Source: an uncultured Candidatus Binatia bacterium
GTDB lineage: Bacteria > Desulfobacterota > Binatia > Bin18
Direction: 5' to 3'
DNA: 64,000 nt
Assembly (NCBI GenBank): GCA_965214605.1
Contig: OZ243961.1
Location: forward strand, 3,904,001 to 3,968,000
Part shown: piece after piece, positions 15,462 through 36,030 of the stretch
Layout: each line of letters begins with the position of its first letter
Numbering within the stretch: position 1 is the stretch's first letter
Notes under the pieces: model-generated
The model's input: the letters and a program-made list of their open reading frames with translations, nothing else
What the model was told of the DNA's origin: nothing
Database searches by the model: none
Program-made: the position numbers and the translations under genes

Positions 15462-15553
15462 CTCGTTGCTTTCCTCTCGACTCAGCGGGCACAATCCGAC
15501 CATCGCGCGTGGGCAGGTTTCAATCTCCTACGGAGCGTTGGCTTCATTTCGGA
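15452..15553 (-). CRISPR. detached one-spacer mini-array of the I-D repeat family
   Basis: 15517-15553 matches the main repeat at 32/37; 35-nt spacer 15482-15516; highly degenerate second repeat ending at 15481; leader motif at 15562-15578. Confidence 0.8.
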
Positions 15554-15680
15554 GCTCCGCAGCATTTTTCTTGTAAAAAGCAAGCCTGTTCCCTCTGCCG
15601 CTAGGCGATGTTCCGGGAAGAAAGGGCTCATTTTAAACGAGTTTCTATCCCCTCTTCTGCCTGTTGCGGGACAAGGCGAC

Positions 15681-15784
15681 ATGATGAGTGAGGCGAGGAA
15701 CTCGGTCAATTAGAAAAAAGGGATCCTGAGGGGAAAATCAGGCTCAGTCTCAACCTAGAGAGACTGAGCCTCGAAAAAAAGAGA
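15681..15784 (-). promoter_or_regulatory. second copy of the WYL promoter and palindrome
   Basis: TTGACC-17-CATCAT on minus strand; AGGCTCAGTCTC-N8-GAGACTGAGCCT at 15740-15771; homologous to 35731-35834. Confidence 0.8.
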
Positions 15785-18753: not shown

Positions 18754-21700
18754 GTTTCAATCTCCTACGGAGCTTTGGATTCGTTTCGACGTCCGCCGGG
18801 TCGATCAGCCCACGACGAATCATTTCGTTTCAATCTCCTACGGAGCTTTGGGTTCGTTTCGACCGCAAAGACCCAGAGAAGTTCGGGTATAAAATTGTTC
18901 CGTTTCAATCTCCTACGGAGCTTTGGGTTCGTTTCGACGAACATATTTTTGATGGGAAAAATACTTTAGTATTGTTTCAATCTCCTACGGAGCTTTGGGT
19001 TCGTTTCGACCAGAAGAAGGCTATCACGCCTGGGGACAACTTTTATTTCGTTTCAATCTCCTACGGAGCTTTGGGTTCGTTTCGACCCTGTTTTTCCCAG
19101 AACGGGGAAACCCGGTACTACGTGTTTCAATCTCCTACGGAGCTTTGGGTTCGTTTCGACTGTCTGTCTCAAGCGGCACGATCAGCCGCTTGTCATAGTT
19201 TCAATCTCCTACGGAGCTTTGGGTTCGTTTCGACCTTGAGGGTCTTCACGACCCGGTCAATAATGGTGAGGGTTTCAATCTCCTACGGAGCTTTGGGTTC
19301 GTTTCGACCGCCATGGAGCGCGGCGCGTCGAATAAGTATCCGACGGTTTCAATCTCCTACGGAGCTTTGGGTTCGTTTCGACCCTAGCCCTGGTCCCTCC
19401 TGCTCCAGCCCTCCCTGCTGTTTCAATCTCCTACGGAGCTTTGGGTTCGTTTCGACTCCCCCTGAAGCCCTTTTTGTGGGCTTCACGAGTCAGTTTCAAT
19501 CTCCTACGGAGCTTTGGGTTCGTTTCGACCCTAGAGCCAGCCAAAAGGAGATAACTATGGTTAATTGGTTTCAATCTCCTACGGAGCTTTGGGTTCGTTT
19601 CGACCGCCGAGCGGGAACTGCAAAAGCACTATCAGCTTGTTTCAATCTCCTACGGAGCTTTGGGTTCGTTTCGACCTTGAATGTGACTTAAGAGCTTGGT
19701 TCACCTACTTCTGTTTCAATCTCCTACGGAGCTTTGGGTTCGTTTCGACCAGGGACAGGGTGAGCAGAGAAGATCAGCTCGTTGAGGGTTTCAATCTCCT
19801 ACGGAGCTTTGGGTTCGTTTCGACGTCTCCCGCTCACCCTCCCTCCAACGAGTCGGCCCTGTTTCAATCTCCTACGGAGCTTTGGGTTCGTTTCGACTGC
19901 TCACTCCCTGCTCACTCCCTCCTTGGCTCACCCTGTTTCAATCTCCTACGGAGCTTTGGGTTCGTTTCGACGTCTCCCGCTCACCCTCCCTCCAACGAGT
20001 CGGCCCTGTTTCAATCTCCTACGGAGCTTTGGGTTCGTTTCGACCTCACGAAATGTTCCAACTCTTGCTTTGTCTACATCAGGTTTCAATCTCCTACGGA
20101 GCTTTGGGTTCGTTTCGACCTGGTAATCCCGCCAGCTCTTGCGCGGGCCTTTATAAATGGTTTCAATCTCCTACGGAGCTTTGGGTTCGTTTCGACATAG
20201 TCCCCTCACCGATAGGTAAAGCCGAGAATGCCAGTTTCAATCTCCTACGGAGCTTTGGGTTCGTTTCGACCCTGCAGTTTGTCGCGGACCGGCTGGGAGT
20301 GCGACCGGTTTCAATCTCCTACGGAGCTTTGGGTTCGTTTCGACCGGCGGTTCCGCGTTGCTTGGAGCCCGGGTACCCCCGAGTTTCAATCTCCTACGGA
20401 GCTTTGGGTTCGTTTCGACCCCCAGAACCCGGGTTATGCCCTGTCCGGCGAACTGAAGTTTCAATCTCCTACGGAGCTTTGGGTTCGTTTCGACCCACAG
20501 CGCCTGCTGGCCAACCACCTGGCCGCGTGACCGTTTCAATCTCCTACGGAGCTTTGGGTTCGTTTCGACCCGCAGGAGTGAGGTCGCCGGCCAAATTGCC
20601 CGTGCGAGTTTCAATCTCCTACGGAGCTTTGGGTTCGTTTCGACCCCTGTGAAGCCTCCACCCCAAGGCAAGGCACTCGCCTCAAGTTTCAATCTCCTAC
20701 GGAGCTTTGGGTTCGTTTCGACCCAATGCGTTCAACACCTCGTACACGCAAAATATCGTCGCGTTTCAATCTCCTACGGAGCTTTGGGTTCGTTTCGACC
20801 CCCGGGCAGCTCGTCATCTCAAGCCGCTATCTCGAGCGGTTTCAATCTCCTACGGAGCTTTGGGTTCGTTTCGACCCACCGGACAATATGACCGGTTGGC
20901 GGATGCCATAGTAGTTTCAATCTCCTACGGAGCTTTGGGTTCGTTTCGACCCCCTGGGGTAAGGTCCCCAGCAAGGTTACCAGTACGAGTTTCAATCTCC
21001 TACGGAGCTTTGGGTTCGTTTCGACCCCGACATAAGTAGCGTGGGTCTCAAGGCCAAGAAGGTTTCAATCTCCTACGGAGCTTTGGGTTCGTTTCGACTT
21101 GCTGCTCTGTGTAGGGTTGTCGGCCCAACTCAAGTTTCAATCTCCTACGGAGCTTTGGGTTCGTTTCGACGCCGAAGCTCTCGATGGCCTCGTTGGCGTC
21201 GCCGCGTTTCAATCTCCTACGGAGCTTTGGGTTCGTTTCGACCCCCAGACGGCCGCTGAGGCCGAAAAATCGGTATCGGTTTCAATCTCCTACGGAGCTT
21301 TGGGTTCGTTTCGACCGAACGCGGATAGGGAGCTCGCCTCTCTGCCGCGAGGCGTTTCAATCTCCTACGGAGCTTTGGGTTCGTTTCGACCCAGTTGAAA
21401 AGTTGATAATCCGGCCACGATCGCCAAAGTTTCAATCTCCTACGGAGCTTTGGGTTCGTTTCGACCCCAACTCCCCGAGTTCCATGGCCAAGTTCGCGGT
21501 CGCGTTTCAATCTCCTACGGAGCTTTGGGTTCGTTTCGACCCCAAGCGCGTCCGCCGCGTTCTTGACACGTATGGATGTTTCAATCTCCTACGGAGCTTT
21601 GGGTTCGTTTCGACCCCGCCCCCGCACTCCGCCCCACGTCGAACCCAGATCAGTTTCAATCTCCTACGGAGCTTTGGGTTCGTTTCGACCCGTCCCGAGG

Positions 21701-24384
21701 CGATCAACCAACTCACCCTTACCCTAGGTTTCAATCTCCTACGGAGCTTTGGGTTCGTTTCGACCTCACATCATTCCGTTACGCGTTTGACGGTCCATTC
21801 GGTTTCAATCTCCTACGGAGCTTTGGGTTCGTTTCGACCGCGATGTGGCTCCAGCCTGCGAGCAGCTTGCTCTTAGTTTCAATCTCCTACGGAGCTTTGG
21901 GTTCGTTTCGACCCCATGATATCAGGGCTGCTGGGTGTCCCGGCGGTCCGGTTTCAATCTCCTACGGAGCTTTGGGTTCGTTTCGACCCTCTGAGTTGCC
22001 TCTCTCACGCGTATGCGTGTTTTGTTTCAATCTCCTACGGAGCTTTGGGTTCGTTTCGACCCCGGCGCGTCACCCGGGCACCGCAAGGGGACGAGCTCGT
22101 TTCAATCTCCTACGGAGCTTTGGGTTCGTTTCGACCCTGGCCGATCGTAGTGCGGCCGGACGTCTTTGTCCGTGTTTCAATCTCCTACGGAGCTTTGGGT
22201 TCGTTTCGACCCTGCCAGAACTCCACGCACCATCCGTTGTTTTTCTGCCGTTTCAATCTCCTACGGAGCTTTGGGTTCGTTTCGACCCTCGAACCGCTGC
22301 GGGAGCGTAAACTGGCCGTTCGACGTTTCAATCTCCTACGGAGCTTTGGGTTCGTTTCGACCCCGGCCTGCAAGGCCGCCGCGGCCTCGTCACAGCGCGG
22401 TTTCAATCTCCTACGGAGCTTTGGGTTCGTTTCGACCCGGGAGGGAGCTCCTCCCGGTAGAGGTCATTCTTCCGGTTTCAATCTCCTACGGAGCTTTGGG
22501 TTCGTTTCGACGCCGCGACACAAGCCGAACCCTTTGTCTGGAGGATTCGTTTCAATCTCCTACGGAGCTTTGGGTTCGTTTCGACTCAACGCCGTACTCA
22601 CAACGGAGATGGTGATCGCAATGTTTCAATCTCCTACGGAGCTTTGGGTTCGTTTCGACCTCGCTTAAATCGTTCTTGGTGTTGTCTAGCCTGGTGTTTC
22701 AATCTCCTACGGAGCTTTGGGTTCGTTTCGACCCAAGCAGAATCCTCGCATTATCACGTTGCTTGATTTGATTGTTTCAATCTCCTACGGAGCTTTGGGT
22801 TCGTTTCGACCACACTATGCCCGCGGGGAATATGAAAAAGCAAAAGAGTTTCAATCTCCTACGGAGCTTTGGGTTCGTTTCGACCCCCGGAACAGGTCGA
22901 TGTGTTTATGTGCTTTAATGGAGGTTTCAATCTCCTACGGAGCTTTGGGTTCGTTTCGACCCATGCCCGGTCGGACACCGCTGTGGGCATTCGTGAGCAT
23001 GTTTCAATCTCCTACGGAGCTTTGGGTTCGTTTCGACCCCAAATAAGCGGATGTACGACGGCAATCTACTATTCAGTTTCAATCTCCTACGGAGCTTTGG
23101 GTTCGTTTCGACCCCAATCTCCAGAAAGTCTATGTGCTCTTGCCGTCACGAGTTTCAATCTCCTACGGAGCTTTGGGTTCGTTTCGACCCTCCGATTACG
23201 GAGGCTTAAGCAGTCGGTTAGAATGTGTTTCAATCTCCTACGGAGCTTTGGGTTCGTTTCGACCAACTGTTTAACCTTGCACGGGCATAGTGTGGATTAT
23301 GTTTCAATCTCCTACGGAGCTTTGGGTTCGTTTCGACCCAGGATGTTGCCGGCCGCGTCTTTCTGGCTGATCTGTTTCAATCTCCTACGGAGCTTTGGGT
23401 TCGTTTCGACCGGACAGAGCAGCGTATATATAGGTATAGGAAAGGAGGTTTCAATCTCCTACGGAGCTTTGGGTTCGTTTCGACCCCTTCGCAATCTGGA
23501 TGCCATCGGAACGTTAATCGGGTTTCAATCTCCTACGGAGCTTTGGGTTCGTTTCGACCCACGGTAATTGAGAAGACAACTAATCCCCCCCGAGTATAGT
23601 TTCAATCTCCTACGGAGCTTTGGGTTCGTTTCGACCCGCCATCGCACGGCCCATCCCCAGGGGGTCGACAGGTTTCAATCTCCTACGGAGCTTTGGGTTC
23701 GTTTCGACCCCCCCCCGCGATGCCCCGGGACAATTCCGCCTTCGTGGGGTTTCAATCTCCTACGGAGCTTTGGGTTCGTTTCGACCCCTGATGAACAACC
23801 GACACGAGGATCGCAAAAGGTTGTTGTTTCAATCTCCTACGGAGCTTTGGGTTCGTTTCGACCGTGGAAGAGCAATAAAAATCGATTCTCCCTGCCTGAG
23901 TTTCAATCTCCTACGGAGCTTTGGGTTCGTTTCGACCGAAACCACATCGACACCAAAGACCATCTTGAACTCGGTTTCAATCTCCTACGGAGCTTTGGGT
24001 TCGTTTCGACCCCCCGGCCACAGGTCCGGCGGTGACGGCGGATCATGCTCGTTTCAATCTCCTACGGAGCTTTGGGTTCGTTTCGACCCCGGCTCAGGCG
24101 CCGGCTCAGGAGGCTCCCCATAAAGTTTCAATCTCCTACGGAGCTTTGGGTTCGTTTCGACCCAGGGCATCCCAGGTCGGCCGCGTCCTGGAGCCAGGGT
24201 TTCAATCTCCTACGGAGCTTTGGGTTCGTTTCGACCCATGATCTCTATCGGTCGGACACGGGGCCCACGGTGGTTTCAATCTCCTACGGAGCTTTGGGTT
24301 CGTTTCGACCCCGTCCATACCTGGCCCGGCTCGAGATTCAAAAGGCGGTTTCAATCTCCTACGGAGCTTTGGGTTCGTTTCGAC
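18754..24384 (-). CRISPR. CRISPR array, 76 repeats / 75 spacers; 37-nt repeat GTCGAAACGAACCCAAAGCTCCGTAGGAGATTGAAAC
   Basis: Repeats counted by hand; spacers 34-41 nt; ATTGAAAC 3' handle on minus strand; variant terminal repeat at 18754; leader toward cas2. Confidence 0.99.
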
Positions 24385-24583
24385 CCCCCCTAGGGCATTT
24401 TTCTTGTAAAATCAGGATCTTAAGGACCCTTTGGCGCGGGTCGCTGGTTTTCAGATGAATTTCTGAGCCTCTCCTCCCTACCTTTGGCAGTTGCATCTTC
24501 TCAACTCCTTGATCCTTCGGTATTTTCAAATAAACGCGGATCTACCCATATTTGATCAACAGCTTCGATACGCGCTGGATGAG
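24385..24583 (-). promoter_or_regulatory. CRISPR leader
   Basis: AT-rich non-coding region between cas2 and the first repeat; ends in G6 (24385-24390). Confidence 0.85.
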
Positions 24584-26522: not shown

Positions 26523-27377
26523 TTAAGCCCTAATCCTCCGAGCCATTCCAAAGCCCATCGTCGTGCGCGCGCCAATACCAGAGAAGAAGGCCAGATCGGC
26601 AAGCGCGTTGAGTTGCTTGTTTAGCTCTCCTATGGCGCTGCCGCACAAGCGGAAATGGCAGGTGCCAACGAATCCAGGAAACCCTGTCGTGCGGTATTGT
26701 CCGTCGGCCCTTGGAAACACGAGCCGTGCCTGCTGCGATGAAATGCGGTGGGACATCATTTCCAGATTATGAGCAAAGATATCTTTCAGCAGCGCTTCAT
26801 CAGGAAAGGGTAGGGGAGAGAACTGGTTCCAGTTTTGGAGCAGGCTACCAAAAAGCAACTCCGGTAAGGGGAGGGGAACCATCAAATCCGGGTAGGCGGC
26901 CCCCCCCCCACGTTTGAAGAACGTTGGCGTGACAAAGTGGAAGGAAAAGAGTTTTTCTTCCACTGAGGCCTGGTCGTATATATCCTCAAAAGAACAACAG
27001 CCCGCCCAAGCTTCATTGCTGTGTGGAGTGCTCAGAATACGGGCGACTGTCAAGTCCGTCCGGACCAGCTCAAGCCTGAGAGCTGGCGCAGTCAGAAAAT
27101 AACGGGATAGAAGAGGATAGATCGCATCATCCAGAAAGGTGAATCGAATTCTCAGTTCCTCGCCTGCACGTATCTTCTCTGCCCGCCGCTGACGATCGTC
27201 CAGCAGAAGAGTAGTGGAAAAGGGCTTGAGCCCGGATATATCATGGACCTCATCCCCTTTGGCTACGCTTGCCTTTTGGAGCAGTTCATAAAAGATACCG
27301 TGCAGGATCTTACCCTGGGTGTGAAGCACGGGCATATCCGTACTGGGGAAGGCGTAAATGACGAGGGCGTAGGGCAT
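26523..27377 (-). CDS. cas6: CRISPR-associated endoribonuclease Cas6
   Basis: FVTPTFF, PLPLPELLFGSL, C-terminal GIGARTTMGFG loop. Confidence 0.95.
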   Translation of the reverse strand: MPYALVIYAFPSTDMPVLHTQGKILHGIFYELLQKASVAKGDEVHDISGLKPFSTTLLLDDRQRRAEKIRAGEELRIRFTFLDDAIYPLLSRYFLTAPALRLELVRTDLTVARILSTPHSNEAWAGCCSFEDIYDQASVEEKLFSFHFVTPTFFKRGGGAAYPDLMVPLPLPELLFGSLLQNWNQFSPLPFPDEALLKDIFAHNLEMMSHRISSQQARLVFPRADGQYRTTGFPGFVGTCHFRLCGSAIGELNKQLNALADLAFFSGIGARTTMGFGMARRIRA

Positions 27378-27443: not shown

Positions 27444-29789
27444 CTATGCTATCCACCACTCTCCCGTCTGTCGTTTGAGCGACCAACCATAACGACCCAT
27501 GACCTTATAACCATCTAAGCCATCTAGAAGGCGGAGTTTTCTTGGAGGGGAACAATCTTCTGCAAAGGTGATGTTGAGATCCGTATAATGAATTCCCTCC
27601 CGGATAAGCCTGCCCCATTGCCAGGGCTTGAGATCATCAGTATCAAGAATAAAGCAGGGGATGTAGCGTGTAGAGAGGACCTCGGTCATCCGATCTAGAT
27701 CTGGAATGGGAACAATTGCTCCCTGTTGTTTCAGACTGAGGGAGAGCTTCGGAAGGGCGGTTGGCTTTTTCGTATAACGCCTCCGAAAATCTCTCCAGCT
27801 ACCTTCAAAATGCCGTATCCAGCTTACCTGTAAAGGCTGATCTAGGATGTCCCGGAGGATAACCTTGAGGTTGCCTTTCTCGGGATGCGACTCTGCCTTG
27901 AGCCGCCAAGAGTAGAATCGGAGGAGGTGAAAAAGCCTGAGTTGTACAGTCTCGCGGGCCGGTGATACCAATCCGTGCGGGTCGTCAGCCTCAATCTCTA
28001 TGCCAATGTCAGGGTTGCGAAAGCTGAATATTGGCCGAAGTGCGACCTCTTCACGGACAAGATAGTCACGAAGTTGTTCCCGGCCCCGGTCCGTGGATAG
28101 AATTTGTTCTACCTTGCCCTTGACCTCCTCTTTGCTTAGAACTAGTTCTCCTTCCTCTCGCGCATATTCGCGTAAAGCCCTGACTACCGCGGTGCCAGGT
28201 TTCATATTGGACTGCCGCAATTCCTGCTGCAAACGGCGGAAGTCCTGCAAACGGCGGATCTCTCCTTTCAGCCTCCGAAGGGTTCTTTTACTCGAAGGAG
28301 CGTAGACCCGCTTAATCCTGTCAAATGTCTGCTCAATGATGTCCCCGTTCTCTCCCAGCAGTCGTTGCATTTCTGATAGCGGTTGGGCCACCTCAAGCAG
28401 GGTATAGGAGCTAATGTATTCTGCAAATGAAGGGCGATGCATATCTCCATTTGCAGCTTCATGTAATAAACTCTTTAGTTCTGTCCGAGAAAGAGCAACG
28501 TCTTCTCCAATTTTTTCATGCAGTCTACGCCAGGGCTCGTCTGGGATGAAGGCAAATCCAAGAGATGGAGCGTCTTGAATTCGTTTGCCTAGGACGCGGC
28601 CTCCGCGTCCTAGGCGTTGCCAAAATTGATCTTCTAACAACGCCTCAAAACCCACAAAGTCGAGGTTTTGTTGATCCTTTGCTCGGCCCTCAAAGTTGAA
28701 ACCAATGTCTACCGTAGGCGTGGCAAGAAGGAGAGGTCTGAAACGAGCCTGTTTTCGTTCCTCCTTTCCCAGTGGGCCGGTTATTCTTCCGACATTCTGT
28801 ACCCCGAGTCTACGCTCGAACTTTCTGGCAAGACGATTCACACCATATAAGCTGTTGAGGAGAATTGCCCCATCGTTTTTTTGCTCAACCAGATTGGCAA
28901 TTTGTTCGATACAGGAGGAAAATTCTCTGGCTGCATCTCGCGTATACGGGAATAGCTCCAGCTCCAACTTGGTCAGGCTTTTGGTTGTCAGACGGTCAGG
29001 CACCGTTGCGGGTTCCGGATCCAATCTTTTGATCGAAATCCCTTCGTCGGCTAATCGCTCAACGAAGAGATTCAGATCCGAATCAGGCGTTGCTGTGAGC
29101 AAACAAATTTTTCTCCGCTCGGTTTGACTAGGCGCGAAGTAGCCAAACGCTTTGGACAGTAGAACAAAGAAGAGTAAGTTAGCGAATTGTTTAGCGTCGT
29201 AGTAGTGGACTTCGTCGATAATAATGTACTGAAACTTACTAATGAACTGCTCGGCGATATTGCGCTGGTCAAGGCGATTAAAGAGGTAGAAAATGCCGTA
29301 ATAAAACAGGTCAGGATTCGTCACCAGGACGAGAGGAGGCTTTGCGCTGCGTTGGGAGTTTTGTGCCTTCAGGACCAGTGATGGGTTGGTGAGAATCCGG
29401 TAGAACCGCTCGCCAGGTCTTTTTCCAAGGGTGTCGGGTAGCTCTCGCAAAAAAGCGGCATCCACGCTCTCCACAACATGAGGCAAGCCAGCGGTTGCGA
29501 TAAATTGCTTCACATCCTGAGCATGTTGTCTTACTAGTTCATTTACCGGAGCGATGAACAGGGTGTTGACCTGTGGGTGATTGAGGAGCCACAGAAGAGC
29601 AGCCTTCGTTTTGCCCGTACCAGTGGGGAAAGCATTGAGGACCATATCGTGCTCTGCCAGGGCCGAAACCGTGTCCATTTGATGTTGGAGGGGGGTGGGC
29701 AATACTCTGTGAATGTTGATCGGGACGGTCTCAGGTGCAGCAATTCGTTCATATTCTGCCCCAAGATGGATACGGATTGGTCTGGTCAT
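27444..29789 (-). CDS. cas3: type I-D helicase Cas3' (no HD domain)
   Basis: PTGTGKT, DEVH, TAT, TVDIGFNF, QRLGRGGR. Confidence 0.93.
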   Translation of the reverse strand: MTRPIRIHLGAEYERIAAPETVPINIHRVLPTPLQHQMDTVSALAEHDMVLNAFPTGTGKTKAALLWLLNHPQVNTLFIAPVNELVRQHAQDVKQFIATAGLPHVVESVDAAFLRELPDTLGKRPGERFYRILTNPSLVLKAQNSQRSAKPPLVLVTNPDLFYYGIFYLFNRLDQRNIAEQFISKFQYIIIDEVHYYDAKQFANLLFFVLLSKAFGYFAPSQTERRKICLLTATPDSDLNLFVERLADEGISIKRLDPEPATVPDRLTTKSLTKLELELFPYTRDAAREFSSCIEQIANLVEQKNDGAILLNSLYGVNRLARKFERRLGVQNVGRITGPLGKEERKQARFRPLLLATPTVDIGFNFEGRAKDQQNLDFVGFEALLEDQFWQRLGRGGRVLGKRIQDAPSLGFAFIPDEPWRRLHEKIGEDVALSRTELKSLLHEAANGDMHRPSFAEYISSYTLLEVAQPLSEMQRLLGENGDIIEQTFDRIKRVYAPSSKRTLRRLKGEIRRLQDFRRLQQELRQSNMKPGTAVVRALREYAREEGELVLSKEEVKGKVEQILSTDRGREQLRDYLVREEVALRPIFSFRNPDIGIEIEADDPHGLVSPARETVQLRLFHLLRFYSWRLKAESHPEKGNLKVILRDILDQPLQVSWIRHFEGSWRDFRRRYTKKPTALPKLSLSLKQQGAIVPIPDLDRMTEVLSTRYIPCFILDTDDLKPWQWGRLIREGIHYTDLNITFAEDCSPPRKLRLLDGLDGYKVMGRYGWSLKRQTGEWWIA

Positions 29790-30547
29790 TGTCGGGCCCT
29801 TCGCCGACCTCTTCTACGAGGCGGGGCATCGGCAGGTAATCTGAACATCATTCCGGCCGGTATCCGAATGTCGTCTAGATAGCACATGCGGCCAGAAAGC
29901 TGAGCGTTAATGATGAGCGGGACGGGCGGTAGGTTGAACAGATCATGATAGCCGACCTCGACCGTCGGAGGCAGGTCGAGAGGATTAAGGAATATCTCGA
30001 CCTGCTCGGCCTGAACGTCCTGAGTCGGTGGATCTTGCCATGTCTGAGTGACCTCAAGGCGTATTTTCCCCATAAACTTTCCGAGACGAATGTAGCGAGG
30101 GAGAGAGACAGATTCCCGAGAGAACACATAGCAGCGGAAACGGTTTCCCCGGGAGAGCACGCGGAGTCGTCCTTTCTGGGGGAAGTTGGTAGCTGGAGCA
30201 CGAATGCTGTCAAGACGGACGGCGAGATCGGCAACAATTGCATTGTTTGCCATTTTATACCAGTACGAATCGACCATACCGTTAAAACGCTCAACCTCCA
30301 GCGCGGGTGTTCCCACAGGAGTGCCCGGGGTTACATAGAGACCTTTCTTGTTGAGACCTCCGAGGTCTTCTCGATAGTAAGGGCGGTCCTCTCGGTCTGA
30401 CTGCCGATAGGGCGATAAACAGAACCCCAGCGCATAGGTCAGCGCGTAGTTGCCGAGCACGGGCTCTGTCTGGAACAGTTCATCGATTTCTCGGCTCGCA
30501 AAGAAGACCTTCTCATGCAGGGTGAGATCAAGACGATAGACAAACAT
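29786..30547 (-). CDS. cas5: type I-D Cas5/Csc1
   Basis: LHEKVFFASRE...NYALTYALG...PRYIRLGKFMGK. Confidence 0.92.
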   Translation of the reverse strand: MFVYRLDLTLHEKVFFASREIDELFQTEPVLGNYALTYALGFCLSPYRQSDREDRPYYREDLGGLNKKGLYVTPGTPVGTPALEVERFNGMVDSYWYKMANNAIVADLAVRLDSIRAPATNFPQKGRLRVLSRGNRFRCYVFSRESVSLPRYIRLGKFMGKIRLEVTQTWQDPPTQDVQAEQVEIFLNPLDLPPTVEVGYHDLFNLPPVPLIINAQLSGRMCYLDDIRIPAGMMFRLPADAPPRRRGRRRARQ

Positions 30548-30555
30548 AAGGCTTC

Positions 30556-31536
30556 CTACTGTCTCTTTTTTGTCACGGCTGAAGTAGGATAAGATTCGTC
30601 AAGACGCCGGAGAAAAGCTTCTGGAGCTTCATATGTCTTCTTCACCTCGACCAGAAACTCGTCAAGCCGCGGCCCGCTCATTACCTGATAGTCTCCGATA
30701 GTTTCCGAGAGGAGATTTGTCAGGACGCCGTCCTCTCCGCGAATAGCCGAAACAATCTCAGTCGTTTGTAACGGGTGTTCCTTGTCAGTGAGGCGTTGAT
30801 AGGTTGCCTGAGTCAGCTCTAAGGAGCTGAAGATTTCAGTCCGGGAAAAAACAAGGCCAAGAATACTGTTCTGGACTCTCCCGATACGAGACGAAATGGC
30901 ACCGTAGCGGGAGCTCCGCAAAATGTTTCCGCACGCATAAAGCAGTTCGTCAGCAGTGACATCTTTGAGGACTTCGAGGTCAATGAAATGCGACTCAGGT
31001 TTAACGTACTCGCTTTCGTTGATGCTTGTTGACGGCTCTCCGGTGAGAGGATTACGCATGGTACCATTGTCAAAGAGTGCATTAAAAGTCTTGGTGTCTA
31101 CAATTGAAGGAGCCGGTAGCAAGGAGAAGGCATCTTCGGTCAAAACCCTCGATTTTTGAGCCCCTCCCCCACCAGCCGCAAATCCATAGAGCCAACAGTC
31201 TACACATTGCTCACAGGGATTATTGGTGTTGAGCATACACTCTTCTGTCCCATCTTTGATTTTTTTGAGGAGGCCAAAACTTCGCAACAGTTCTCTGCCC
31301 GTCCGGCGTTCAACAGCGGTTTGTTTGCGCTTGGAAATGACGATTCGGGGAATCACTTCACTGTCATTGAGTCCTGCTCGGACAAACTCACGGTTCAACG
31401 GCTCACCGCTTCCTTCGGTCCGAAAGATGGCCTCGGATTTTGTTTCACGTAGGACAATAAGGTTCACATATCGCCCTTGGGGCAGATTGGAATATTCACT
31501 CAGCAGAAAATCTGGGTACGCGCTCAGTGTATTCAT
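30556..31536 (-). CDS. cas7: type I-D Cas7/Csc2
   Basis: SEAIFRTEG, SKRKQTAVERR, CVDCWLYG, RYGAISSR. Confidence 0.95.
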   Translation of the reverse strand: MNTLSAYPDFLLSEYSNLPQGRYVNLIVLRETKSEAIFRTEGSGEPLNREFVRAGLNDSEVIPRIVISKRKQTAVERRTGRELLRSFGLLKKIKDGTEECMLNTNNPCEQCVDCWLYGFAAGGGGAQKSRVLTEDAFSLLPAPSIVDTKTFNALFDNGTMRNPLTGEPSTSINESEYVKPESHFIDLEVLKDVTADELLYACGNILRSSRYGAISSRIGRVQNSILGLVFSRTEIFSSLELTQATYQRLTDKEHPLQTTEIVSAIRGEDGVLTNLLSETIGDYQVMSGPRLDEFLVEVKKTYEAPEAFLRRLDESYPTSAVTKKRQ

Positions 31537-31554: not shown

Positions 31555-31995
31555 CTACTCGGGGCTTTCAGCGTTTATCGCTTCCTTGGTGTTATTTCTT
31601 TCTTCCCGTTTGTCTTGGAGGGCTGCGTTCAAGTAAAAGAGGTACGCTTCCTTCAGAGATTTTTCGTCACTGAGAAAGCGGGCGAAGCTGTTTCCATAAC
31701 TCTCGCGCAGTAAGTCATAGAATACTGCAACGAAACGGGTAATCTTTTCGTGCTTGGCTGCGCCGGGCTTATACTGAGGATCGGCCAGGCGTTCTATACG
31801 ATCGAAGATAGCCTGACTTGTTGCAGCCTGGACGGCGTCGAGATCGAGCGGTTCTGACTTGCGCCGCAAACGGTCGAAGGCAAGAGTCAGTGGATCAAGT
31901 AAAGAGTTCCGTTTAAAGCTGCTCCCTCGCAAAGTGTGCTCCGCCGCAAGTTTGGCCATGGTCTTCAAACGCGTTGATACGGCCTGTTCTGCCAT
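31555..31995 (-). CDS. cas11d: Cas11d small subunit from an internal in-frame start in cas10d (146 aa)
   Basis: GGAGG-7nt-ATG (MAEQAVSTRL...) inside the cas10d C-terminus. Confidence 0.75.
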   Translation of the reverse strand: MAEQAVSTRLKTMAKLAAEHTLRGSSFKRNSLLDPLTLAFDRLRRKSEPLDLDAVQAATSQAIFDRIERLADPQYKPGAAKHEKITRFVAVFYDLLRESYGNSFARFLSDEKSLKEAYLFYLNAALQDKREERNNTKEAINAESPE

Positions 31996-34377
31996 TGTCT
32001 TTCCTCCGTATGCTAAAATCTCCAGGATTTCGGTCAGGCGAGTCCGTATAGGACTGGCAAGCACTTCAGGCGCAGCAGCTTTACTGCTCCTGAGCTTCCG
32101 TTCAAGAGCTCGCCCTGCCACTGCAAATATTGCAAGCGGGGTGACTCCTAGTGCTTGGGCAAGATCCCAGTCTATGGAATCGAAGCCGCTTCTAACTTCA
32201 CGATCTACAATACGGAGAGCGGTATAACGCTCAAGCAAAGCATCCGTCTGGGAGAAGCTGAGATTTTTCTGGCCAAAGAAGCCCTGCAGGGCGCTTGGTA
32301 TTGTATCAATATAAAATGCGTCAAACTGCTGGGGACCTATAGGTGGAATCGGCGACTCTGATACTATACAACGCAAACCCAGCAGTTTTCCCAAGCGGAG
32401 TCCTATCTCGACGCTCTGCAATATCCGCCTGCCGTCGCGGCTCTCCCTAACTCCTGGACAGATCGACAGAGTAATGGTGTTACCAATGGCTTCGCTCCGT
32501 TTTGGAACAGCGAAGCCCCGAGCCTTCTGTGATAGGAGATGTAGCTCTAAGTTGGTGTCCTGCCTGTCTGCGAGACTGTTTTCGGTTGGTAAGAAGAAAG
32601 TATCGGGGTCAGCTTTTTGAGCCAGCTCTTCCAAGCTGCTACGAAGGGTCTCCATGTACACCGCTGGCAGGCTGCCTCGAGGAAAGAAGTGTAGGTACAT
32701 GCCCTTCGCTCCACCGGAGCGGAACAGCATCTGTTCCAAAAAGAACTGCTCTCTGCAGACAGGACAAATATTACGCTTTGGTTCTCGTTTTACGCCACCC
32801 TCGAGTCGATTTGAGAACTGCTGAACAACGATTCCTTTTGGGACTTCTGCACTCATCCAACTTTCAGCCTGAGCCACAGACGCGGAGTAACAGCATTGTT
32901 TGTGGTTTTGAGCAACATAGGAGGAAAAATAGGCAGCGAGGTCAGAAGCGGGGCGCGGGGCAAAATCCACGTCGAGAATGTGTCCTAAATAGCTCGTCAG
33001 GAAATCCGGGGGGTCGGAGTTGCCTTTCCCCTGCTTCACGTTCAAATTCACATCCAGAAGACGCGAAAGAATATTTTCTACTTCTTGTTCAAGATTTGAG
33101 TAGGCTTTCTTCAGAGTCCCTGCGACAACAAAAGGTCGGTCGTATAATTTGTCGAAAGGCTCAAAGACAGCTCCATCTATCCCGAGCAAGATGTACAAGG
33201 AGGACCACGGATCATCTTCTCCATTAGTGAGAAGGACTGCCTGTTTTGAGAAGTGGGTTTTAATGAGGTTATATAGTGCTCGGAGCAGTTCCCCTGCACG
33301 CATCAGGTCTTCTGTTTGAGGATAGGATATCCTATGTTCGTTGCAATAGATCTCTATATTTATGGAGCTTTTGCGTTGAAGTCGTCCGGCACATTTCTGT
33401 CGCTCCCCTTCAATCTTACGAGGGTCGAACCGACGTCTGAACACTTGCTTGGTGATTTCGGTGACGATTTCAGGAGCGTCTAATCCGAGGCGAAAGAGAC
33501 TTGGGTCTGTTTTTACCCCATCTTTGGTCAAGGAAACGATCTTGGATAAGTCCTGACTTCGTATCTTTCCTAGAGATCTCTGGACAGCCGCACTCACTTT
33601 TTGGTGAAAGACGGAACGGTCAGGAAGGGAGGCCCCAGAAGGAACGAGATACCACGTTCCTTCTGGGTACAGGAGAACGGCGGTCGCAGTGTATTCTTTT
33701 TCAAGCACTTCTCGGGCGCTGTTGTGGATTATGTTTGAGAGGACCCCACGATGTTCTCCAAGGCGGTAGCTGATTAGACGGTACTGCTTCACCCCAACCG
33801 AATTGATCTCCAAAAGAAATTTATCCTTGAATTTTCGCTCCTCGAAACGTTGAGAGAGATCGGAGATATCCACGGCACGCATGAGAAAGGTGAGGGCTTC
33901 GAGATGAGTCTTGCCGATTCGACTGCCTTCAATTTCTGCCAGCAGGCGTTCCCCTGCAACAGTCGTGTGGCCTCCATGACCCAGGATGAGTTGTTTCAGG
34001 TCTGCAAAGACCTCTTGCCACTCGGGCAGGAATTCTGCCACGCCTGAATCACGAATCACTTGTTCGAGGAAGGCTCGATCATCAACCAACTTGCGTAAAC
34101 TCTTCCCTCCTGGCTCGTATAGTTTGTTCAGATCATGAATGCTAAAGGCAGCCATGAGGAGGCGGATGTCTTCGTCAGAATACTGGAAGAGAGAACCCAA
34201 CGAATGGAGCAAAAGAGACCCTCGGATTAGGTGAGAGTAAAGATCATGCCCTTGTCGTATGCCCGTTTGAGCGGAGGCACGGTACTTTTGCAACTTGCCT
34301 TTCGCAACTGTTTTAAGGTAACGATCAACGATGGACTCTTGCTTATTACTAAGAATCAAGAGAATTTCGTCTGCCAT
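31555..34377 (-). CDS. cas10d: type I-D large subunit Cas10d with N-terminal HD nuclease
   Basis: SH...HDLNK HD motif, QQFSNRL, CPVC; position upstream of csc2. Confidence 0.93.
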   Translation of the reverse strand: MADEILLILSNKQESIVDRYLKTVAKGKLQKYRASAQTGIRQGHDLYSHLIRGSLLLHSLGSLFQYSDEDIRLLMAAFSIHDLNKLYEPGGKSLRKLVDDRAFLEQVIRDSGVAEFLPEWQEVFADLKQLILGHGGHTTVAGERLLAEIEGSRIGKTHLEALTFLMRAVDISDLSQRFEERKFKDKFLLEINSVGVKQYRLISYRLGEHRGVLSNIIHNSAREVLEKEYTATAVLLYPEGTWYLVPSGASLPDRSVFHQKVSAAVQRSLGKIRSQDLSKIVSLTKDGVKTDPSLFRLGLDAPEIVTEITKQVFRRRFDPRKIEGERQKCAGRLQRKSSINIEIYCNEHRISYPQTEDLMRAGELLRALYNLIKTHFSKQAVLLTNGEDDPWSSLYILLGIDGAVFEPFDKLYDRPFVVAGTLKKAYSNLEQEVENILSRLLDVNLNVKQGKGNSDPPDFLTSYLGHILDVDFAPRPASDLAAYFSSYVAQNHKQCCYSASVAQAESWMSAEVPKGIVVQQFSNRLEGGVKREPKRNICPVCREQFFLEQMLFRSGGAKGMYLHFFPRGSLPAVYMETLRSSLEELAQKADPDTFFLPTENSLADRQDTNLELHLLSQKARGFAVPKRSEAIGNTITLSICPGVRESRDGRRILQSVEIGLRLGKLLGLRCIVSESPIPPIGPQQFDAFYIDTIPSALQGFFGQKNLSFSQTDALLERYTALRIVDREVRSGFDSIDWDLAQALGVTPLAIFAVAGRALERKLRSSKAAAPEVLASPIRTRLTEILEILAYGGKTMAEQAVSTRLKTMAKLAAEHTLRGSSFKRNSLLDPLTLAFDRLRRKSEPLDLDAVQAATSQAIFDRIERLADPQYKPGAAKHEKITRFVAVFYDLLRESYGNSFARFLSDEKSLKEAYLFYLNAALQDKREERNNTKEAINAESPE

Positions 34378-34527
34378 GGTTGTCTCCTTGCGGTAAAAAG
34401 AGAGATTGGGTAGTAAAGATTATGAATTGTTGTTCAGTTCTTGAGATTCTTGGTCAAATTCTTGTTCCTGACGATCAATGAGGTCCCGCAGTGAAGAGGC
34501 CTTTTTGCTTTCTCTTTTCGGCTTTCG

Positions 34528-34552
34528 TCATCTCATCCCTCATGACCCCTTA
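34528..34552 (-). other. SD (TAAGGGGT) plus ATG-AGA-TGA minigene, candidate CreT-like RNA
   Basis: Minus strand reads TAAGGGGT-catgaggg-ATG AGA TGA, immediately downstream of the crRNA-like target. Confidence 0.4.
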
Positions 34553-34558
34553 AAAGAT

Positions 34559-34583
34559 GTTACAGAGGTCACAACTTTCCTGA
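34559..34583 (+). promoter_or_regulatory. GTT PAM plus partial protospacer for the crRNA-like element
   Basis: GTT-ACAGAGGTcacaaCTTTCCTgA; overlaps a minus-strand TAACAT -10-like box (34557-34562). Confidence 0.65.
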
Positions 34584-34631
34584 AAGAGAGTCAATAGGAT
34601 AAAAAAATCTGGCTGGTGTCAATATAGTAGG

Positions 34632-34712
34632 GAAGGCCCGCTCAACAAAGTCTGTAAGACATTGAAATACAGAGGTTTTTTCTTTCCTAATTTCTCCGTA
34701 GGAGCTTGATTC
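34632..34712 (+). ncRNA. crRNA-like regulatory RNA (CreR/CreA-like)
   Basis: CAAA-GTCT-GTA-AGAC-ATTGAAAT, 25-nt guide, then CTCC-GTA-GGAG-CTTGATTC; TATAGT -10-like box at 34623-34628. Confidence 0.72.
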
Positions 34713-34741
34713 TCAAGGCAGCTGTGAGCATGCGTCTCTTG

Positions 34742-35722
34742 TTATCCTGGCTCTTGGGTTGGTTGCGAATCGGCATACACTTCCGCCAACCGCTCCGCCG
34801 TCTGTCCTAATTCCTGCCGCAAACTCTCCGGCTCCAAAACTTCTGCCTCAGCTCCCCACTGCAACACCCACCAGCCGACTTCGCGGGGTTCGCTGACCTC
34901 GACCTCAAACAGCAGACTGCCGTCTTGCTCTTCGGTAAGTTCCTGTGAATGGTGCCAGCAGGCTTCACGGATGAACGGTGCAATACGTTTAGCAAAACGT
35001 ACTCGGACCCGTTGAACCGTGTCCCCTACAAACACACTGAAGGCGTGTCGATGCCGCCGGGCAAAGTTATATGCAGGGCGGCGGGTGAAGTGTACCGGCA
35101 GCTGCTGGACCTCGGAAATGCGGTTGACCCGAAAGACCGAGTCCCTTCCGACTTTGGGACTGTAGGCATCAAGATACAGCGCTCGGCGTTTGAAGTAGAC
35201 CTGGTACGGATTGATCGTATGGGTCTTGGCCGTCTCGTCGCTCGGACGGGTATAGACAATCGTCACCTGTCGGCAAGCCTGGACCGCTCGGGTGAGTTCC
35301 TCCAGAATATCTCGTCGGCAGCCAAAGCCCTCCCGAAGCACCACTTCGTTCAAGCATGTGTTGAGGATTTCCCGCTGCCCGCCCTGAGCGTTGACAATCA
35401 TCTTTTTGATTGCTTCCAGAGCGTCATAGGTCAGAACGAAATCGCCCGCTGCCGAGAGCTGACGGACCGCCATGGTCAAGGCCAACATCTCGGTCATGGT
35501 CAGGTCGTAGACAGGGAGGTAGGGCTCTTTATGGATGACAAAGCGGTTTTGTTGCCGAGAGTAGGAGTAGATAAATCCTATTTTTTTGAGGGCTTCCTTG
35601 TCGCGGTAGTACTGGGCTTTTCCTATGCCGAGTGAATTCCACAGGTTCTCCGGCGATTGGTAAGGGTCGGTTTTGACCTTGGTTGCGTGCAGCAATAAAC
35701 GGCTGGATTTGTTTGTATCCAT
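34742..35722 (-). CDS. wHTH-WYL-WCX transcriptional regulator
   Basis: YYRDKEAL HTH, INPY...LYLDAY...FRVNRI WYL core, WVLQWGAEAEVLEPESLR WCX. Confidence 0.93.
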   Translation of the reverse strand: MDTNKSSRLLLHATKVKTDPYQSPENLWNSLGIGKAQYYRDKEALKKIGFIYSYSRQQNRFVIHKEPYLPVYDLTMTEMLALTMAVRQLSAAGDFVLTYDALEAIKKMIVNAQGGQREILNTCLNEVVLREGFGCRRDILEELTRAVQACRQVTIVYTRPSDETAKTHTINPYQVYFKRRALYLDAYSPKVGRDSVFRVNRISEVQQLPVHFTRRPAYNFARRHRHAFSVFVGDTVQRVRVRFAKRIAPFIREACWHHSQELTEEQDGSLLFEVEVSEPREVGWWVLQWGAEAEVLEPESLRQELGQTAERLAEVYADSQPTQEPG

Positions 35723-35730
35723 CGCCTGAC

Positions 35731-35819
35731 ATGCTAGGCAGAGTGGGAAACTCAGTCAATTAGAAAAAAGGAATCCTGATAAGGAAAATTACGCTCAGTC
35801 TCAACCTGGAGAGACTGAG
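35731..35819 (-). promoter_or_regulatory. WYL promoter (probably leaderless) with upstream palindrome
   Basis: TTGACT-17-TAGCAT ending 8 nt before ATG; CTCAGTCTC-N8-GAGACTGAG at 35794-35819. Confidence 0.75.
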
Positions 35820-35853
35820 TCTCGAAAAAAAGAGACGGGGGCGAGGGCATGGA

Positions 35854-36030
35854 GCGAATTTTTCCGTCGGTCTCAAAGCGGTTGATGCTCTGCGGCTGGC
35901 GTCGACCGTAGCCAGAGCAGTCGCCTCTTTCTGTACTTGTGATTCTCGCTTCTTGAAACGAGCCGGGGAGATGGATACGAAACGTGCAAAAGTCATGTCC
36001 CCTTATAGAGCTCGTTGTGGAGTTGCATAA
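35854..36030 (+). pseudogene. C-terminal remnant of a PIN-domain protein
   Basis: Manual translation GLKAVDALRLAST...FCTCDSRFLKRA...KVMSP, then apparent frameshift to ELVVEL. Confidence 0.55.

Follow-up and report, generated by a model that had tools for sequence, protein, structure and literature searches.

A degenerate two-repeat mini-CRISPR upstream of cas10d as a probable autorepressor of a type I-D system in an uncultured Candidatus Binatia bacterium

In CreTA of type I-B Haloarcula, which consists of the CreA antitoxin RNA and the CreT toxin, a crRNA-like RNA guides Cascade by partial pairing and represses a neighbouring promoter. Autorepression by CreR RNAs was demonstrated in types I-B, I-E, and V-A (Liu et al., 10.1101/2023.03.10.532045), and the accessible part of that report also presents creR-like elements of type I-D, found by hand and untested there (Figure S7). 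Mini-arrays of type I-D were furthermore predicted by Shmakov et al. 2023 (10.1101/2023.03.03.530964): according to the accessible text, their position is conserved while the spacer and target are variable, and the predicted targets are the cas10d promoter region or sites upstream of cargo genes (TA, regulators) lying before cas10d. The PAM of type I-D is GTN, its native mature crRNA has 45 nt, the WYL protein Sll7009 is a repressor of type I-D, and the control of type I-D expression is listed as an open question in the accessible part of a further paper (PMC10212523). No experimentally tested type I-D crRNA-like regulator was found in our literature search, and type I-D was not mentioned in the accessible parts of two later crlRNA preprints.

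The DNA analysed here (the window) is a stretch of 64,000 nucleotides from an uncultured Candidatus Binatia bacterium (assembly GCA_965214605.1, contig OZ243961.1). An original prediction, made from the letters of this DNA, proposed a hidden crRNA-like RNA that would aim type I-D Cascade at the upstream region of its own cas genes, and left open whether such a case was new. This reserve was justified because I-D mini-arrays aimed at the cas10d promoter had already been predicted (10.1101/2023.03.03.530964, accessible part). Judged from its sequence, the window element is a real example of this already predicted kind, with good support from the comparison of related loci, and the locus, or the clade of its three closest metagenomic relatives (L011, L013, and L014; see below), may already be contained in the supplementary lists of the same report. 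We put the probability at roughly 70% that 34650-34712 (+ strand) is a degenerate two-repeat mini-CRISPR, that is, a CreR/crlRNA-type gene of the type I-D system that autorepresses the effector operon.

The system itself is of type I-D, since Cas10d/Csc3, Csc2 (Cas7d), Csc1 (Cas5d), the Cas3' helicase, Cas6, and Cas1d are all present. The genes of the locus are as follows:

34742 to 35722, - strand: WYL/WCX regulator gene (WYL, 2e-14; WCX, 1.5e-21)
31555 to 34377, - strand: cas10d (csc3; TIGR03174, 60.1 bits against a cut-off of 60)
30556 to 31536, - strand: csc2/cas7d
29786 to 30547, - strand: csc1/cas5d
27444 to 29789, - strand: DEAD-box Cas3' helicase gene
26523 to 27377, - strand: cas6, the presumed processing enzyme (TIGR01877, 78 bits)
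listed after cas6, - strand: cas4, cas1d, and cas2
18754 to 24387, crRNA sense on the - strand: CRISPR array of 76 repeats

Every cas gene of the locus is on the - strand, and cas10d is the first intact gene of the effector operon. In the crRNA sense (- strand), the 3' end of the array repeat is CTCCGTAGGAGATTGAAAC, in which the hairpin CTCC-GTA-GGAG is followed by the handle ATTGAAAC.

Several other repeat-derived sequences were observed in the genome. An orphan unit at 15480-15580 (- strand), 3 kb past the array end, is made up of a fragment of the array leader (tttacaagaaaaatgc), a repeat whose 5' half is degenerate and whose hairpin and handle are perfect, a spacer of 36 nt, and a terminal repeat that is degenerate as well. 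As a second regulator this unit was rejected: none of its 36 genome sites with GTN and seed lay in the window, and the best of these sites matched at 18 of 36 positions. Another CRISPR array, on contig C1 (1,687,776-1,689,721, - strand), has a repeat of its own that nevertheless ends in the same 8-nt handle (ATTGAAAC); one solitary similar repeat was also seen at 1,681,730, and another piece of the type I-D array makes up contig C2 (1208 bp). In addition, an 87-bp direct repeat with 90% identity (15699-15784 and 35749-35835, + strand) spans ~20 kb and brackets the array, cas genes, mini-array, and WYL gene; it contains a hairpin with a 9-bp stem and may mark duplication or island edges.

Between the WYL regulator gene and cas10d, two repeat remnants (PsiR1 and PsiR2) surround a pseudo-spacer on the + strand. 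This mini-array (34650-34712) is antisense to the cas operon and the array, and is directed into the 3' end of the WYL/WCX regulator gene. Its parts and its target are as follows:

34559 to 34561, + strand: GTT PAM, GTN being the type I-D PAM (PMC10212523, accessible part)
34562 to 34586, + strand: protospacer (target), matching guide positions 1-8, 14-20, and 22 (16/25)
34623 to 34628, + strand: TATAGT box, a possible -10 of the mini-array, with no acceptable -35 by eye
34646 to 34668, + strand: PsiR1, CAAA-GTCT-GTA-AGAC-ATTGAAAT
34650 to 34660, + strand: hairpin of PsiR1, GTCT-GTA-AGAC, a putative Cas6 site
34661 to 34668, + strand: 5' handle of PsiR1, 8 nt, ATTGAAAT, with 7/8 identity to the array handle ATTGAAAC
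34669 to 34693, + strand: pseudo-spacer (guide), 25 nt, ACAGAGGTTTTTTCTTTCCTAATTT
34694 to 34712, + strand: PsiR2, CTCC-GTA-GGAG-CTTGATTC, with the exact array hairpin and a degenerate handle

The repeat halves, hairpins, 7/8 handle, and 25-nt guide of the original prediction were thus all recovered, and the matching guide positions and the GTT that precedes them could be read directly in the sequence. Two further claims on this element fared less well. Compensatory changes had been proposed to preserve the stem of PsiR1, and the stem is indeed preserved through two-sided changes, with the outer pair altered from C-G to G-C on both sides; however, PsiR1 is 3 mismatches away from the array repeat type of a relative, G037 (CTCTGTAAGAGATTGAAAC), and since the stem of that repeat is CTCT/AGAG, part of the apparent compensation is natural variation within the repeat family. 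The TATAGT box exists, but its reading as a promoter was not supported, a sigma-70 scan of 34300-34850 having given no sites on either strand.

The repeat origin of the mini-array and the guide-target match are far from chance. When a 19-nt pattern of hairpin and handle was allowed 3 or fewer mismatches, 78 matches were found in the window (mean of 0.01 in shuffles), namely 76 array repeats, the orphan unit (15517-15535, - strand), and PsiR2. In the whole genome (4.37 Mb; 3 or fewer mismatches), sites outside the arrays were limited to PsiR1, PsiR2, the orphan unit, and one unrelated site. The cas locus contains, apart from its array, two repeat-derived sequences that enclose a spacer-like stretch on a single strand. 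Folding of the 90-nt region was no better than that of shuffles (z +1.14), with the PsiR1 hairpin present in the MFE and centroid folds and the PsiR2 hairpin absent from the MFE fold; folding energy is uninformative for 4-bp Cas6 hairpins, and such stems would need Cas6 to hold them. No Rfam family matched within 34300-34850 at E up to 1. A solitary repeat unit or RNA anti-CRISPR (Racr), which would be one repeat carried by a virus or mobile element and lacking a host target, was ruled out on the basis of the two remnants, the chromosomal site in a cas locus, and the PAM-flanked target. Directly downstream of PsiR2, a 34-aa hydrophobic ORF (34706-34810, + strand; TTG start, internal ATG at 34730) runs antisense to the 3' end of the WYL gene, and may be a chance antisense frame.

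The target is 107 nt away from the guide and 184 nt upstream of the cas10d ATG. GTN followed by the exact 8-nt seed occurred at 7 sites genome-wide, and at 22 when position 6 was left free (4.37 Mb); the window target headed these 22 sites with 16 of 25 matches, the next best having 13. In the window assembly, the uninterrupted match between guide and target is 8 nt only, and the circuit may therefore be weakened here. Similarity of the guide to the target starts exactly at guide position 1, with none in the flank, which argues against a simple duplication; a duplicated repeat-plus-spacer unit was accordingly rejected as the source of the similarity.

Cas10d of the window type was rare, being present in 4 of 61 relatives and in 4 of 401 genomes of the class (the same four, the organism's own genome included). 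Among the genome contigs searched with the Cas10d N-terminus, one locus was obtained, a fragment in G023, and no unit was found upstream of cas10d there; the contig of G016 ends 137 nt upstream of cas10d. In G037, the WYL gene is followed by a different spacer region containing one antisense degenerate unit (CCCTGTAAGGGCTTGAATA) and a small ORF, which we take to be UPF0175-like. Alignment of the upstream DNA of G037 was limited to the ribosome-binding site and a single short coding-like block, and no PAM-plus-seed target of the single unit was found within 1500 nt. G037 also has extra repeat-like units (L007:19560-19660 and L008:1444-1462, both on the + strand), which are found in the interval separating cas6 from the next gene and immediately ahead of the array. 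These are possibly further mini-arrays, and one of them comprises two units.

A metagenome scan provided 18 loci in which the Cas10d N-terminus was 45-76% identical, eight of which carried an antisense repeat-like hairpin and handle 400-700 nt upstream of cas10d. No complete unit was seen in the other 10, three of which had less than 900 nt of upstream sequence. The loci with an element fell into two layouts. Group 1 (L011, L013, and L014; 71-72% identity) has the compact layout of the window, in which the hairpin is followed by ATTGAAA[AG], 25-27 nt, and then CCCC-GTA-GGGG, and a T-run at guide positions 9-13 is common to these three loci and the window. In group 2 (L016, L019, L020, and L025), 41-44 nt separate the handle from the second hairpin copy, the contig of L016 stopping short of this copy. 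A covariance model trained on the four group-1 elements (window, L011, L013, and L014) detected no additional members of group 1 in a search of 26 sources; its matches beyond the training rows were true array units in the crRNA sense and, weakly, the units of group 2 and G037.

The original prediction had named covariation of guide and target across orthologous I-D loci as a check, and the outcome was positive. In 8 of the 8 loci tested (window, L011, L013, L014, L016, L019, L020, and L025), a GTN-flanked site within 300 nt matched the seed at positions 1-5, 7, and 8, compared with 0.45-0.8% of control pseudo-spacers taken from every other start position in the same regions. L016 and L020 are near-duplicates, so that these loci correspond to ~7 independent cases. 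The seeds vary between loci (ACAGAGGT, ATTTAAGT, AGTAAGGT, AGTAAGAC, GTAAGTCA, ATAAGCCT, and GAAGTATT), guide and target changing jointly within a conserved architecture. The targets are as follows:

Window: PAM GTT, antisense to cas10d, 184 nt upstream of the cas10d ATG
L011: PAM GTT, antisense to cas10d, 313 nt upstream of the cas10d ATG
L013: PAM GTT, sense with cas10d, about 283 nt upstream of the cas10d ATG
L014: PAM GTC, sense with cas10d, 299 nt upstream of the cas10d ATG
L016: PAM GTG, sense with cas10d, about 555 nt upstream of the cas10d ATG
L020: PAM GTT, sense with cas10d, about 555 nt upstream of the cas10d ATG
L019: PAM GTT, sense with cas10d, 562 nt upstream of the cas10d ATG
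L025: PAM GTT, sense with cas10d, 472 nt upstream of the cas10d ATG

A common pairing pattern was found in L011, L013, and L014: positions 1-9 paired, 10 unpaired, 11 paired, and 12 unpaired. The mismatches in L016/L020 and L019 included positions 6 and 12, and also 18 in L016/L020. In type I Cascade, every sixth base is flipped out. This flipped-out sixth base is noted for type I-F1 in the accessible part of the mini-array report (10.1101/2023.03.03.530964). All 60 hairpin cells were paired, and double changes had occurred at 3 of the 4 pairs; this count is biased and carries little weight because the rows came from a scan demanding 4 pairs.

Both hairpins are also DNA palindromes in a regulatory intergenic region beside a regulator gene, as would be expected of protein operators (e.g. 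of the WYL regulator), the direct repeat then being due to chance or duplication. We regard this reading, in which there is no RNA element at all, as highly improbable. The handle is not palindromic, and yet it is conserved and strand-specific; the similarity that begins at guide position 1 and excludes the flank does not fit a repeat-plus-spacer duplication; the PAM and seed change together across the 8 loci; and L015, where the WYL gene is 21 nt from cas10d, has no such element.

The surroundings of the target bear on which gene would be controlled. Three further features on the - strand are needed here:

34622 to 34617 and 34599 to 34594, - strand: candidate promoter P1 (TTGACA, 17 nt, TCCTAT), a consensus match only
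34594 to 34589 and 34573 to 34568, - strand: candidate promoter P2 (TTGACT, 15 nt, TGTGAC), proposed from the sequence
34475 to 34543, - strand: small-ORF remnant of 22 aa, hydrophilic, similar to the N-terminal portion of the 69-79-aa ORFs in L011, L013, and L014

P1 and P2 are both weak consensus matches, with 3/6 in the second hexamer in the window assembly. P1 ends 7 nt ahead of the protospacer, and its predicted start (about 34587-34586) coincides with the first base of the protospacer footprint, so that Cascade at 34562-34586 would cover the predicted start of a transcript into cas10d. In L011, L013, and L014, the protospacer or PAM comes directly after TTGAC[AT]-N17-TATTTT or TATCGT (matched to the consensus only). 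Its other end, or that of the PAM, stops 8-14 nt short of the start codon of a small ORF (L011:655-870, L013:2749-2955, and L014:1388-1624). A gap of 30-80 nt separates this ORF of 69-79 aa from cas10d, which has the same orientation. Its products are conserved, acidic, and helical, with no Pfam family above the cut-off and only chance-level Atlas matches. In the window the small ORF is decayed, its C-terminal-like part having lost the frame. In group 2, an HTH-type regulator gene is located behind the target (profile-supported for L025).

This gene order is compatible with another reading, a CreTA-like control of cargo in which the client is the gene right behind the target, i.e. the 69-79-aa ORF (L011, L013, and L014) or the HTH-type regulator (L016, L019, L020, and L025), any effect on cas10d is incidental, and the pair in the window is orphaned. 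The targets are located 8-20 nt upstream of the start codon of that gene and not of cas10d (measured from the nearer end of the protospacer or PAM), an RHH gene and a PIN-like frame (by eye) adjoin the element in L013 and L014, and type I-D clades with cargo between the mini-array and cas10d are described in the accessible part of 10.1101/2023.03.03.530964. In spite of these points, we consider this reading unlikely. The short distance of 30-80 nt from the small ORF to cas10d, both on one strand, makes it likely that the two are co-transcribed; the acidic, helical small proteins are not toxin-like and gave neither a Pfam family above the cut-off nor a lead in the Atlas; and the ORF of the window is gone, yet the hairpins, handle, seed, and PAM are intact and were identical in four DNA runs (see below). 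A CreTA addiction module in the window itself was rejected, because a 22-aa hydrophilic remnant is all that follows the target and the intact homologues have no toxin features.

The RHH (CopG-like) gene of L013 (2192-2548, - strand) and L014 (836-1189, - strand) lies directly downstream of the mini-array on the same strand, and is followed by the PIN-like reading frame, the PIN label of which was given by eye. This suggests that the guide of these two loci could be cut from the leader of a TA operon.

For autorepression by the mini-array, our preferred reading, we infer the following course from transcription and processing to loading, binding without cleavage, and repression. The mini-array region would be transcribed from the + strand, and Cas6 would cut after each 4-bp/GTA hairpin, leaving an RNA of ~44 nt composed of the 8-nt handle AUUGAAAU, the 25-nt guide, and an 11-nt hairpin. 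The predicted length of 44 nt is nearly that of the native mature type I-D crRNA, which has 45 nt (PMC10212523, accessible part). On the other hand, the guide has 25 nt against 36-39 nt for the array spacers, and PsiR2 is without the 5' 18 nt of the repeat; loading into a full-length Cascade is hence an assumption. Type I-D Cascade would load the RNA and locate the GTT PAM at 34559-34561, whereupon the 8-nt seed would pair with 34562-34569, with partial pairing beyond. As pairing is interrupted at positions 9-13, we propose that the complex would bind without licensing cleavage by Cas3'. Bound Cascade would then cover the start of a transcript running through the decayed small ORF into cas10d-cas7d-cas5d-cas3', and effector expression would be lowered.

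The original prediction was thus partly supported: the covariation in relatives speaks for its crRNA-like guide with a GTN-flanked target upstream of cas10d, and its TATAGT promoter had no sigma-70 support. Its choice of the cas10d operon as the target needs a qualification: the first gene behind the target in the relatives is the small ORF or a regulator, and this gene is decayed in the window. Its pairing scheme is correct for the window assembly, although two substitutions there lower the pairing relative to other assemblies of the organism, as follows.

Contigs of four DNA runs were compared with positions 33500-36000 of the window (2501 bases). The contig of run X2 showed no difference from the window, of which it may be the source. 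The long contigs of X3 (depth 6), X4 (depth 86), and X5 (depth 4.7) differed from the window only at 34570 and 34572; X5 belongs to a different study with a different organism label, and its contig spans 34531-34701, ending inside PsiR2. Both sites have C in the window and T in 3 of the 4 runs, and correspond to protospacer positions 9 and 11. T is the base of the guide at these positions, and the T variants give pairing at 1-9 and 11, as in L011, L013, and L014. On the - strand, the second hexamer of P2 reads TATAAC with the T variants, 15 nt after TTGACT, and TGTGAC in the window; the same two bases could accordingly make or break a second -10-like box. The hairpins, handle, seed, and PAM were identical in all four runs (in X5 only to 34701). 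The chance that both differences fall within the 25-nt site is about 1e-4 if they are independent and about 1e-2 if they arose in one event, in an argument that is post hoc and drawn from assembled contigs, two of them with depth near 5. Other differences, at 35780-35792, were confined to short contigs of the repeated 87-bp sequence, and the copy of this repeat at 35749-35835 explains the extra short contigs there. Gene conversion from the guide was rejected as the origin of the T,T alleles, because only 2 of 5 differing bases would have changed.

Tentatively, and with more doubt than confidence, the polymorphism at 34570/34572 may be read as a natural tuning switch of CRISPR self-control, lineages differing only in the extent of pairing with the self-guide. 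If this is true, T,T pairs at 1-9 and 11 as in the relatives, and C,C of the window assembly at 1-8 only; selection in real populations would act on how strongly Cascade autorepresses, on the avoidance of self-cleavage, or on the strength of the promoter; and a ready-made allelic pair would be at hand for measuring the pairing that separates repression from cleavage in type I-D.

The same two substitutions, which lower pairing in the target of the window assembly, would also be expected if the mini-array were a decaying relic, once functional and now inactive, left over from a cargo module that was lost as the WYL gene moved adjacent. The decayed small ORF, the lack of a promoter in the sigma-70 scan of 34300-34850, and the retention in G037 of a single degenerate unit without a target agree with such an origin. 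Neutral decay, however, would not keep two 4-bp stems, a 7/8 handle, an exact 8-nt seed, and the PAM, and the element is invariant across the four runs, with variation only in the non-seed part of the target. We therefore judge a relic to be improbable, slightly more so than the control of cargo, and retain autorepression as the preferred reading.

On this reading, the locus would offer a compact I-D test case in which the hairpins are defined, the seed has 8 nt, the PAM is GTT, and a product of 44 nt is predicted. The natural target alleles in public assemblies, together with the differing guide-target pairs of the relatives, would allow the switch from cleavage to repression to be tested.

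Compared with CreTA, the window element has in common a predicted crRNA-like RNA that would be aimed by partial pairing at a neighbouring candidate promoter, and differs in that a toxin candidate under the target promoter was not found. With CreR/crlRNA it shares a degenerate unit of two repeats located between cas-locus genes, PAM-flanked and seed-limited complementarity to what may be the effector promoter region, and predicted binding without cleavage leading to autorepression. It differs from these in the subtype (I-D), in the 25-nt guide that abuts the second hairpin, in the antisense orientation of the unit with the target 5' of the unit on the unit's own strand, and in the decayed small ORF between the target and cas10d. 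The I-D mini-arrays of Shmakov et al. agree with it in the putative target region and in a conserved position with a variable spacer and target; in the accessible part of that report, the upstream repeat is the better conserved one, whereas in the window PsiR2 has the exact hairpin and PsiR1 the better handle. Lastly, as with the WYL repressor of the Sll7009 type, a regulator is encoded beside the type I-D operon, the WYL/WCX gene of the window being directly upstream. In contrast to the mini-array, this regulator is a protein and would form a second, independent layer of control, and the locus could show how RNA autorepression is combined with a neighbouring WYL repressor.
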